Source of the DNA: Rhodospirillales bacterium
GTDB taxonomy: Bacteria > Pseudomonadota > Alphaproteobacteria > Rhodospirillales > Shumkoniaceae
NCBI GenBank assembly: GCA_018432935.1
Contig: JAHDSF010000047.1
Span: forward strand, 4,463-68,462
DNA: 64,000 bases
Direction: 5' to 3'
Shown in pieces: positions 32,548-35,105 of the stretch. The notes below the pieces were generated by a model. The model did no database searches. It saw nothing but the letters and a program-made list of their open reading frames with translations, and was not told the DNA's origin. Within the stretch, counting starts at the first letter, position 1. Each line of letters starts with the position of its first letter. The position numbers and the translations under genes were made by a program.

Positions 32548-33153
32548 ATGATCACAACGATCCCGGGACCGGACGGCAGGCCGCGCTGCCGCTGGGGCAC
32601 TGCGACCCCGGAATACCTGGCCTACCACGACACCGAATGGGGTTTCCCGGTCGCCGACGACCGCCGCCTGTTCGAGAAGCTGAGCCTGGAGGGCTTCCAG
32701 TCGGGGCTGAGCTGGCGCACCATCCTGGCCAAGCGCGCCAACTTCCGCGCCGCCTTCTGCGACTTCGATTTCGACAGGGTCGCGGCGTTCGGCGAGGACG
32801 ACGTGGCGCGCCTGCTCCAGGACGCCGGCATCGTGCGTCACCGCGGCAAGATCGAGGCGGTGATCAACAACGCCCGCCGTGCCCGCGAACTGGTCGAGAA
32901 GGAGGCCTCGCTCGCCGCCTTCGTCTGGCGCTTCGAGGCTGCACCGGTTCCGGCCGGCGAAGCGCGTTCGACCTCGGCGGAGTCGGTCGCCCTGTCGAAG
33001 GAGTTGAAGAAGCGCGGCTGGACCTTCGTCGGCCCGACCACCGTCTACGCGTTCATGCAGGCGATGGGTCTGGTCAACGACCACGCGTCGGAATGCGTGA
33101 TCCGCGCCGAGGTCGAGCGCGCGAGAGCGGCCTTCGAGGTGCCGGGACGCTGA
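32548..33153 (+). CDS. tag: DNA-3-methyladenine glycosylase I
   Basis: 201-aa ORF with the blocks CRW, YHDTEWGFP, LEGFQSGLSW and VGPTTVYAFMQAMG. Confidence 0.9.
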   Translation: MITTIPGPDGRPRCRWGTATPEYLAYHDTEWGFPVADDRRLFEKLSLEGFQSGLSWRTILAKRANFRAAFCDFDFDRVAAFGEDDVARLLQDAGIVRHRGKIEAVINNARRARELVEKEASLAAFVWRFEAAPVPAGEARSTSAESVALSKELKKRGWTFVGPTTVYAFMQAMGLVNDHASECVIRAEVERARAAFEVPGR

Positions 33154-33211: not shown

Positions 33212-33736
33212 TTACGCGTCCGAGGGAGAGATCGTGCCGCTGGCTGCGATCTCGAATGCCTCATGGAAACGCACCGTTCCCTTCGGCACCTCGCCGCCGA
33301 ACGGGAGCACCAGGAACACCTCGGGCGGCACCCCAGGCAGGACCAGACCCGACGGGACGCGGAAGCCGAAGCGGCGGTAATAGGCGGGGTCGCCGACCAG
33401 CACGCAGCCGGCGGCGCCCGAGCCCTGCAGCCGCTCGAGCCCGGCACGCACCAGAGCCTGGCCGATACCGCGGCGCTGGCGGTCGGGCCGCACGGCGACC
33501 GGGCCGACGCCGTACCATCCTTCCGCCTCGGCGATGGCGACCGGGGAGAAGGCGATGTGGCCGACCACCTCGTTCCCCTCGATCACCACCAGCGACAGGC
33601 TCAGCGCTCCCGCCGCCCGCAGCCCTTCGAGAAGGCTGACTTCCGTCTGGTTGCTGTAGGGCATGCCCGCGAAGGCCGCCGCAATCAGCGCGTGGACGCC
33701 GACGCGGTCGCCAGACTGTTCGTTGCGAATGAACAT
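33212..33736 (-). CDS. GNAT family N-acetyltransferase (YhbS/YjhQ-like; candidate antitoxin partner of TopAI)
   Basis: 174-aa ORF with acetyl-CoA motif A RRGIGQALVRAGL. It starts 15 nt after the yjhX-like stop on the same strand. Confidence 0.75.
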   Translation of the reverse strand: MFIRNEQSGDRVGVHALIAAAFAGMPYSNQTEVSLLEGLRAAGALSLSLVVIEGNEVVGHIAFSPVAIAEAEGWYGVGPVAVRPDRQRRGIGQALVRAGLERLQGSGAAGCVLVGDPAYYRRFGFRVPSGLVLPGVPPEVFLVLPFGGEVPKGTVRFHEAFEIAASGTISPSDA

Positions 33737-33751
33737 GGCTTCTCCTGTTCT

Positions 33752-34009
33752 TTACCGGTTGTCCGCCTGCGGCCGCACCGCTTCGCGCCCTCGGCGCGAT
33801 ATGCGGTAGGGCAGGCCGTCGCGTGATTCGATCAGCCGCTTGCCGCGCAGCCGTTTGAAGACGGCCAGCGTGCAGTCGCCGAGCACCCAGCCCTCGCGGG
33901 TGAAGCACTCGACCTTGCAGATTCGGAAGTCGTCGTCGCGCTGATGGCGGATGAGGCCGCCCTGAGCGAGCACGTGCAGGACGCGCTGCTCGATCCTGGA
34001 AAGGTTCAT
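33752..34009 (-). CDS. topAI: UPF0386/YjhX family protein (TopAI-like topoisomerase I inhibitor toxin)
   Basis: The 85-aa [29 protein letters not shown]...ECFTREG...[10 protein letters not shown]...PYRIS...RPQADNR has the same length and conserved blocks as my recollection of E. coli YjhX. Confidence 0.8.
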
Positions 34010-34188
34010 GGCTGGAAGACCTGTGACTGTAACCCACGACAGACGCCCCCCGGAACCGGCGCCTCACGGGCGGTTCCAGGTCAGCGCCGCATCCGGTCCC
34101 GCACGCGGCGGGACGTCAGCGGGTTCCCACAGTCTCCGGCATCCAAGCTCCATCGAACGGGCAGGCGGGCGCCTGCCGCAGCGGGCGC

Positions 34189-34217
34189 TCTATAGGCCGC
34201 TGCCCGAACGGTGTCAA
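34189..34217 (-). promoter_or_regulatory. Near-consensus sigma-70-type promoter facing the topAI-like gene
   Basis: The minus strand reads TTGACA-ccgttcgggcagcggcc(17 nt)-TATAGA. The predicted leader to the ATG at 34009 is about 170 nt. Confidence 0.45.
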
Positions 34218-34565
34218 GGACAGCCGGTCTTGATAGTGTCTGGACCACGCCGGTGCTTGAGGGCGTCGATCACGATCTCGCAAGGTCTGCGCAAGGCATC
34301 CTGCCCATCCCGGCGAGGGTGACCGAGGTTGCGCTGATGGACAACCTGCTCGGCCCCTGGAGAGTCGTCACGACGTTCCCGTTGGATGGGTCGTGACGTT
34401 CCTCGATGCGGGCGGGATCGTCGCCTGGCTGGAAGCGGGTGATATCAGCGTGCGCACCGGCCATGATGAAGAGAACTGCGGAAGGGGTCTGCTTGTATTC
34501 CTGCCTCTTCTTCTGTACCCTCGCGAATAACTTCCTGAACGGAGCGACATTTTAATCAACCGCTC

Positions 34566-35105
34566 ATGAGCGTTCCCTGGGATATTCGCGATTACCCCCT
34601 GACCTCCCCGCCCGAAGCTTTTGGGCGGTTTGAGGATTTCGTCCGGCTGTGGCAATCCAAAAGGGACGTCGCTCAGAAGAATGGCCGGATCCTGCCCGCC
34701 TGGAAGGACTTCGATCTGATAGAGCTTCGCCCCTGGTGGGGCTGCCTGGCGCTTCTGAAGCGGGAATACAGCACGGGGGAATTTTACGTTCAGCTTTGGG
34801 GAACCAAGGTGTCGGACTGGTTTGGAAAAGATGTAACAAATAAATCTCTGGACGACCTGTTTGCCTCTGATCCGGAGAGGAAAAAGAAAGGTATGGATCA
34901 TTTAGACTTGTTTTTCAAAGGAGAAGTCATAGCATTCTGGAAGGAAGTGCCGACCCATTTTCTTATTGATTACGCGTTCATCGAAGGCCTATCGGTTCCG
35001 CTTTCCCGGGATGGTACGACGACGACCCACATGATGAGCATCAAGAACCGGGTGACCGCGGAAGACGACTTCTGGCCTCCCATCCCCCACGTCGCCGAGT
35101 TCTGA
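34566..35105 (+). CDS. PAS_5-type PAS domain protein
   Basis: 179-aa ORF. The pattern W..KR....GRILPAWKDFDLIELRPWWGCLALL...F.VQLWGTKV.DWFGKDVT resembles the small alphaproteobacterial PAS_5 (PF07310) proteins. It is visibly A/T-richer than its surroundings. Confidence 0.65.
   Translation: MSVPWDIRDYPLTSPPEAFGRFEDFVRLWQSKRDVAQKNGRILPAWKDFDLIELRPWWGCLALLKREYSTGEFYVQLWGTKVSDWFGKDVTNKSLDDLFASDPERKKKGMDHLDLFFKGEVIAFWKEVPTHFLIDYAFIEGLSVPLSRDGTTTTHMMSIKNRVTAEDDFWPPIPHVAEF

Follow-up and report, generated by a model that had tools for sequence, protein, structure and literature searches.

A toiL-topAI-GNAT-type locus in a Rhodospirillales bacterium compared with its relatives

Genes and leader at the locus

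A 64,000-nucleotide (nt) stretch of DNA from a Rhodospirillales bacterium (assembly GCA_018432935.1, contig JAHDSF010000047.1, positions 4,463 to 68,462), hereafter the window, carries on its minus strand a gene for an 85-residue homologue of TopAI (YjhX), the Escherichia coli topoisomerase I inhibitor, followed by a gene for a 174-residue acetyltransferase of the GNAT (GCN5-related N-acetyltransferase) type. The initial annotation had proposed these two genes as a toxin-antitoxin module, and both open reading frames (ORFs) and the 15-nt gap between them were confirmed from the sequence. In front of topAI lies a short upstream ORF (uORF) resembling E. coli toiL, an 8-codon uORF controlling the topAI-yjhQ-yjhP transcript (PMC12121999). 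The working of the operon probably turns on this toiL-type leader, which formed no part of that first description. The locus itself is an intact, ordinary new member of a known toiL-topAI-GNAT operon type, and the family-wide pattern into which it falls is more interesting. The features of the locus, in the order of transcription, are as follows.

34189..34217, minus strand: putative sigma-70-like promoter read from the sequence, TTGACA (34217-34212), 17-nt spacer, TATAGA (34194-34189)
34004..34151, minus strand: predicted leader RNA fold (minimum free energy fold, duplex energy and covariance model)
34151-34148, minus strand: uORF Shine-Dalgarno sequence GGAG, 5 nt 5' of the uORF ATG
34116..34142, minus strand: toiL-like uORF, ATG CCG GAG ACT GTG GGA ACC CGC TGA, encoding MPETVGTR*
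33752..34009, minus strand: topAI/yjhX homologue, 85 aa (PF09857, NF010240), putative topoisomerase I inhibitor, without a strong Shine-Dalgarno sequence of its own
33737..33751, minus strand: intercistronic spacer, 15 nt, with AGGAGA at 33746-33741, 4 nt 5' of the GNAT ATG
33212..33736, minus strand: YhbS/HqbA-like GNAT acetyltransferase, 174 aa (Pfam GNAT families, 4zbg_A, YhbS)

The 85-residue protein matched Pfam family PF09857 (YjhX_toxin) over residues 1-85 of 85 (141.1 bits, E 1.1e-41, cut-off 27) and NCBIfam NF010240 (139 bits, cut-off 99). Alignment with TopAI of E. coli K-12 gave 58% identity over 85/85 residues without gaps, and identity to the TopAI of locus L004 was 72%. A gap-free alignment of 29 sequences, comprising the window protein and 28 relatives, had a mean column identity of 73%; all 22-24 invariant family residues are kept in the window protein, including C35, C46, Y68 and N84. 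The assignment to YjhX/TopAI had originally been made on length and on a set of conserved blocks, and these blocks fall in invariant or near-invariant columns of the alignment. The protein is a genuine full-length member of the TopAI/YjhX family. An AlphaFold2 model built from 28 sequences with the E. coli row left out (predicted local distance difference test score 90, predicted template modelling score 0.78) consists of a helix, two strands, a helix, a strand and a helix in that order. Foldseek comparison of this model with the PDB returned nothing significant (best E 0.08); a weak likeness to winged-helix regulators, with a template modelling score of ~0.5, lay below significance and no fold is claimed, and a PDB sequence search with TopAI returned no relative. 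In E. coli, TopAI binds the topoisomerase I-DNA complex, inhibits topoisomerase I and is toxic when overproduced, and cells are rescued by co-expression of YjhQ (PMC4666372). By analogy, the most likely activity of the window protein is to bind the topoisomerase I-DNA complex and to slow growth.

The 174-residue protein is a GNAT (PF13508, 41 bits; PF00583, 41 bits; PF13527, 37 bits) in which, by alignment, the acetyl-CoA motif Q-R-R-G-I-G is intact, and the match of both ORFs to their families is far beyond chance. Among known structures, PDB entry 4zbg_A matched residues 1-162 with an E value of 7e-50 and 4rs2_A matched with an E value of 5e-17. Of the two E. coli proteins compared, YhbS/HqbA scored higher (77.8 bits, 35% identity over 170 aa) than YjhQ (49.3 bits, 37% over 100 aa). 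A maximum-likelihood tree of 90 GNATs placed the enteric YjhQ proteins in a separate long-branch clade (support 100/100) and the window protein among free-standing GNATs, indicating on phylogenetic grounds that it is not a YjhQ orthologue. The two-gene architecture of E. coli is therefore reproduced in part: gene order, tight spacing and GNAT fold are kept, while the partner enzyme is closer to YhbS/HqbA. A possible identity as an aminoglycoside acetyltransferase or Eis was rejected, the NCBIfam matches (E 0.002-0.009) lying far below the cut-offs. The Pfam scan gave GNAT domains only, with no DNA-binding domain in the window GNAT. The AGGAGA in the spacer suggests that the GNAT is translated by coupling or by independent initiation from a single transcript.

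Leader RNA and a predicted start-masking helix

The window uORF starts 133 nt 5' of the topAI ATG and E. coli toiL (MLENVIIR*) 139 nt 5' of it; both have 8 codons in an M-x-E-x-V-x-x-R frame, with Leu2, Asn4 and Ile-Ile in E. coli against Pro2, Thr4 and Gly-Thr in the window. A 7-8 codon ORF of pattern M-x-E-x-V occurs once in the 64-kb window, both strands included (128 kb), with 0.07 expected in simulated sequence. To place the uORF among its relatives, 80 TopAI loci from species-representative genomes were surveyed, and approximately 74 of them carry, 117-140 nt 5' of topAI, a uORF of the M-[LSP]-[ED]-x-[VA] type with 7-8 codons. Hosts include Enterobacterales, Lysobacteraceae, Moraxellaceae, Saezia, Parvularculaceae and metagenome-assembled genomes (MAGs) of Rhodospirillaceae and Bdellovibrionales. 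The window uORF agrees with this type in length, sequence, distance and possession of its own Shine-Dalgarno sequence, and the uORFs of the nearest TopAI relatives read MLELVSRH, MLELVQTA, MSELVRHH, MSELV and MSELA. By this sequence comparison, conservation of the leader spans proteobacterial classes and extends further. The Caulobacter TopAI loci (L037, ~3816, of Caulobacter sp. AP07, and L040) represent a divergent branch of the leader, with either a longer uORF, MSEIVCEARA, 185 nt 5' of topAI or none of the usual type. In these loci topAI starts with TTG or GTG and has no coupled downstream gene.

In E. coli the toiL RNA pairs with the topAI ribosome-binding site, at least five antibiotic classes stall ribosomes on toiL and so open the hairpin, and when topAI is untranslated Rho ends the transcript (PMC12121999). 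A corresponding structure is predicted for the window. The minimum free energy fold of 34170-33990 (-87.6 kcal/mol, z -2.2) contains a long-range helix whose 5' arm is the uORF with its Shine-Dalgarno sequence (34151-34116) and whose 3' arm (34048-34004) comprises the 40 nt 5' of the topAI start codon together with that codon; two G+C-rich hairpins (34110-34085 and 34080-34049) lie within it. The duplex between uORF and start region has an energy of -31.0 kcal/mol, compared with -22.4 +/- 3.6 for shuffled sequences (4/200 as strong). The same helix arrangement was found in E. coli and a further 17 lineages with letters differing on both arms, that is, with compensatory changes (for example GUAAUCAUC/GAUGAUUA, GUAGCAAUC/GAUUGCUGC and GCAGUAAUC/GAUUACUGC), and also in most members of the window's own clade. 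The inner part of the leader differs between lineages, those of gamma- and betaproteobacteria having an inner hairpin with a conserved GATAAYC/GRTTATC stem whereas the window has the other, G+C-rich hairpins.

The helix was further assessed in an alignment of 28 leaders by projecting single-sequence folds onto the alignment and counting pairs explicitly. A named 32-pair structure was 89% paired, compared with 32-48% when the partners were slid, a control that is flattered by derivation of the structure from members of the alignment. The double changes stand regardless: 14 pairs were changed on both sides, and 74 such cells were counted as compared with 22.6 +/- 5.3 in shuffles (0/500). RNAalifold applied to the full 28-leader alignment returned one small hairpin only, the divergent middle being misaligned by MAFFT. 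A covariance model, R1, was built from 24 leaders from which the window and its clade were left out (178 positions, 32 pairs). R1 matched 33997-34167 on the minus strand over its full length with 25.3 bits (E ~7e-6), the sole match in the window. A search of 33700-34700 against Rfam found no family at E up to 1. Since R1 recovers distant leaders, the toiL leader is a candidate new cis-regulatory RNA family, and with no Rfam family for it such leaders now go unannotated. Regulation by the uORF and masking helix is, in silico, well supported.

The putative promoter places the predicted transcript start near 34182, giving a leader of approximately 173 nt. A consensus promoter scan listed no site, its rule demanding T at the last base of the -10 element, at which TATAGA fails. 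A hexamer TTGAC(A/G) or TTGAAT is present at a comparable place 5' of the uORF in loci L004, L095, L100, L122 and L141.

These data bear on the simplest alternative, that the uORF occurs by chance and the two genes are unrelated neighbours or a decaying module. Nothing specific speaks for this beyond the modest fold statistics of a G+C-rich RNA. Against it, the two reading frames are complete and strongly conserved, the uORF pattern has no second occurrence in 128 kb and stands at the spacing typical of the family, the covariance model matches the leader, and the three-part order of uORF, topAI and GNAT recurs in six other alphaproteobacteria. Fortuitous adjacency is thus highly improbable.

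Gene partners of TopAI and of the leader

The gene following topAI was compared across the 80 loci. A methyltransferase was next in 42, a GNAT in 18 and a beta-lactamase-fold protein in three, with nothing coupled in the remaining 17. The methyltransferases are of the S-adenosylmethionine (SAM) type and of several unrelated-looking kinds; in L061 and L066-L068 a 543-545-aa ORF carries two methyltransferase domains. The beta-lactamase-fold proteins (663-668 aa) begin 7-20 nt after topAI (L029:4279-6270, L031:4279-6270 and L034:4266-6272), in Hyphococcus, Parvularcula and a related MAG with uORFs MSEIVTR or MSELVTR; they match PF00144 with 213 bits and resemble AmpH or class C enzymes without passing any curated cut-off. 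No cargo protein, as the enzymes encoded downstream are termed here, scored above the curated NCBIfam cut-off of any resistance enzyme family, and no substrate is named. Because the next gene varies among TopAI loci, the comparison indicates that toiL and topAI are the conserved core and that the enzyme cargo is changeable.

Within this variety the combination seen in the window is locally stable. In the TopAI tree the window protein groups with six alphaproteobacterial proteins (Shimodaira-Hasegawa-like approximate likelihood ratio test support 92), and a GNAT of this type is next in 7/7 of these loci. Pairing of TopAI with a YhbS-like GNAT was found in at least 13 species representatives, and the window is thus not the scarce second divergent example that the initial annotation had taken it for. 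The association is looser when viewed from the GNAT. Of the 80 nearest GNAT relatives (37-58% identity), 76 had upstream DNA sufficient to judge; TopAI stood in front of the GNAT in 5 of these and was absent within 2.5 kb in 71. In the tree of 90 GNATs the TopAI-linked proteins are scattered, with 11 label changes of which at least four are forced by well-supported branches.

A toiL-like uORF was found 124-153 nt directly 5' of the GNAT gene in at least four relatives of the window GNAT that lack TopAI, absence of TopAI being judged at the locus only.

L097 (2369-2495), Phenylobacterium terrae: uORF MLETVGTL
L083 (~915-1040), Phenylobacterium MAG: uORF MSETVGQV
L084 (~2377-2501), Phenylobacterium MAG: uORF MSETV
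L133 (~2342-2495), Xinfangfangia pollutisoli: uORF MSELV

The uORFs of L097 and the window have 17 consecutive letters in common (GGAGACTGTGGGAACCC), and the letters just 5' of the L097 GNAT start resemble those before the topAI start of the window. In the GNAT tree, L133 and the TopAI-linked L128 are well-supported sisters, and the same uORF is present in both. Judged by these leaders, some genomes use the same sensor to drive the GNAT by itself. A GNAT with an antidote function as its only role is hard to reconcile with leader-GNAT arrangements lacking TopAI at those loci.

The original proposal was of a classical type II toxin-antitoxin system, with TopAI as toxin and the GNAT as a dedicated antitoxin with no other job, serving addiction, persistence or defence. 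In its favour, E. coli YjhQ binds TopAI, pulls down with it and rescues its toxicity (PMC4666372), gene order and spacing are as in E. coli, and the GNAT is kept throughout the window's TopAI clade. The identity of TopAI and its adjoining GNAT within that clade hold, whereas a fixed pairing does not: a dedicated, co-occurring pair was seen only in the alphaproteobacterial TopAI clade, most GNAT relatives have no TopAI, those that do are scattered over the tree, four TopAI-less relatives have the leader directly before the GNAT, and 62 of the 80 TopAI loci have no GNAT next. Even where enteric TopAI proteins are identical, the genes that come next may be yjhQ and then yjhP, or yjhP straight away (L064 vs L065, Citrobacter amalonaticus). 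Nor was an autoregulating antitoxin with a DNA-binding domain found; neither E. coli YjhQ nor its complex with TopAI bound promoter DNA (PMC4666372), and control of the operon appears to sit in the leader RNA rather than in a DNA-binding antitoxin. The locus gave no PADLOC match and has the G+C content of its housekeeping surroundings. Taken together, these observations make a classical toxin-antitoxin system an unlikely description of the window.

In a second alternative, one stress sensor has two outputs that act independently, TopAI and the GNAT. The GNAT would be the real cargo, modifying either the natural inducer or a target related to stress, and TopAI an optional growth brake, with no neutralisation taking place here. 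The exchange of cargo while toiL and topAI stay constant, the existence of toiL-GNAT operons without TopAI and the intact acetyl-CoA motif are consistent with this, and the authors of the toiL study speculate that functions of the operon tie to the molecule sensed by toiL (PMC12121999). However, the only experiments, carried out with YjhQ of E. coli, demonstrate binding and rescue, strict retention of the GNAT in the window's TopAI clade suggests a functional tie between the proteins, and no partner reached a curated cut-off for any resistance enzyme family. Wholly independent outputs are for these reasons doubtful, although somewhat less so than a classical toxin-antitoxin pair.

With regard to genomic setting, 58 nt separate the end of the GNAT gene from the convergent tag gene (32548-33153, plus strand), and the pair lies among ordinary neighbours (tag, ilvE, a DUF763 gene and panE); its G+C content of 0.67-0.72 equals that of its surroundings. 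No yjhP methyltransferase gene is present at the window locus. The DUF763 protein has its best matches in alphaproteobacteria (70-81% identity), and synteny via this neighbour found the cassette in 0/75 related alphaproteobacterial loci, with neither an empty site nor a close relative. A PAS_5-type gene (34566-35105, plus strand) is divergent from the operon and has a G+C content of 0.51-0.60 compared with 0.66-0.75 around it; on composition this stretch looks to be of foreign origin or under unusual codon constraint. The contig is also present in a wastewater-metagenome assembly, and the sequencing runs available for it are of wastewater-metagenome DNA.

A model for the operon and its relation to known systems

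The reading favoured here is that the locus is probably a three-part operon homologous to toiL-topAI-yjhQ, in which a stall-sensing leader controls both TopAI and a GNAT with two roles. The identity of the three parts, the complementarity of uORF and topAI start region and the comparative pattern are observations; by homology with the E. coli operon we infer sensing by the uORF, termination by Rho, inhibition of topoisomerase I and neutralisation of TopAI. Transcription would start at the sigma-70-type promoter and yield the leader of approximately 173 nt. In the resting state the leader helix would hide the start of topAI, which has no good Shine-Dalgarno sequence, leaving topAI untranslated, and the untranslated message would probably be cut short, by Rho as in E. 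coli. A ribosome stalled on the uORF would hold the helix open, and the trigger could be ribosome-targeting compounds or other translation stress. With the helix open topAI would be translated, and the GNAT 15 nt downstream would be expressed along with it. The GNAT would then most likely hold TopAI in check by binding, a role suggested by the precedent of YjhQ and by the ability of YhbS/HqbA to bind Hfq independently of catalytic activity (PMC10710024), and would probably in addition acetylate a substrate of its own, a role suggested by the intact motif and by close relatives behind the same leader without TopAI.

Several points weigh against this model. The uORF peptide is identical to E. 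coli ToiL at just 4/8 residues, and proline at codon 2 is otherwise found in L004 alone. The fold z of -2.2 and the 4/200 shuffles with as strong a duplex are modest values for a G+C-rich RNA. The R1 score is owed in part to coding letters conserved in toiL and in the first codons of topAI, and the inner helices of the model are unmatched by the window leader in the R1 alignment, indicating that the window has inner hairpins of its own. As the GNAT is not a YjhQ orthologue, neutralisation of the YjhQ type is not simply transferable to the window. Rho dependence in an alphaproteobacterium is an assumption, and the promoter, co-transcription and induction of the operon are themselves predicted.

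The closest known system is the E. coli toiL-topAI-yjhQ-yjhP operon (Yamaguchi and Inouye 2015, PMC4666372; Baniulyte and Wade 2025, PMC12121999), with which the window shares the 8-codon uORF and its spacing, complementarity of the uORF RNA to the topAI start region, an 85-aa TopAI and a GNAT directly downstream (gap 15 nt in the window, 11 nt in E. coli). The window differs in that its GNAT belongs to the YhbS/4ZBG-like branch and yjhP is lacking. E. coli YhbS/HqbA (PMC10710024) and PDB 4ZBG, a structural-genomics acetyltransferase, are of the same GNAT subfamily with an intact acetyl-CoA motif, and YhbS/HqbA provides a precedent for a member of this subfamily regulating a small protein partner by binding, with catalysis not needed. 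YhbS, unlike the window GNAT, is not beside TopAI, has no toiL leader and has Hfq as partner; on alignment, the Hfq-binding residues D98 and E102 of HqbA are E and G in the window GNAT.

Attenuation of the ermCL-ermC type likewise depends on a ribosome stalled on a short uORF opening a hairpin by which the following gene's start is hidden, a parallel drawn in an eLife paper, and the cargo classes of the family (acetyltransferase, methyltransferase and beta-lactamase-fold hydrolase) are typical of small-molecule modification. Here, however, the first regulated gene encodes a small topoisomerase inhibitor rather than an enzyme, and no cargo reached a curated resistance cut-off. In the GNAT-ribbon-helix-helix (RHH) systems TacT/TacA, AtaT/AtaR and KacT/KacA, a GNAT toxin acetylates aminoacyl-tRNA and the antitoxin is a DNA-binding RHH protein. 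The window resembles these in being a two-gene module with a GNAT but differs in that its GNAT would be the antidote, has no RHH partner and is of another GNAT subfamily. No description of leader conservation across proteobacterial classes and further, of cargo exchange or of leader-GNAT operons without TopAI was found in the papers searched, although uORF conservation may be shown in part in the figure supplements to PMC12121999.

The locus is useful through its distance from E. coli, its protein sequence having diverged by approximately 40% and its G+C content by 20 points. Retained over this distance are the length of the uORF, its M-x-E-x-V core, its spacing from topAI and the masking helix, whereas the peptide tail of the uORF and the inner hairpins are not retained; this narrows what the sensor needs. 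Partner exchange, TopAI-less GNAT relatives and leaders directly before a GNAT argue that the enzymes are not mere antidotes. A tentative extension, possible but held with considerably less confidence than the three-part model, is that toiL is a portable translation-stress sensor whose real cargo is the enzyme (YhbS-like GNAT, SAM methyltransferase or beta-lactamase-fold hydrolase), with TopAI an optional brake between them. If this were true, the term 'TopAI-YjhQ toxin-antitoxin system' would misname the family, the window GNAT would act on the natural inducer or on a translation-related target, and the system in its simplest form would be toiL-GNAT with no TopAI, such as that of Phenylobacterium. 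The comparison bears on what the operon is for, a question that the toiL study's authors posed (PMC12121999).

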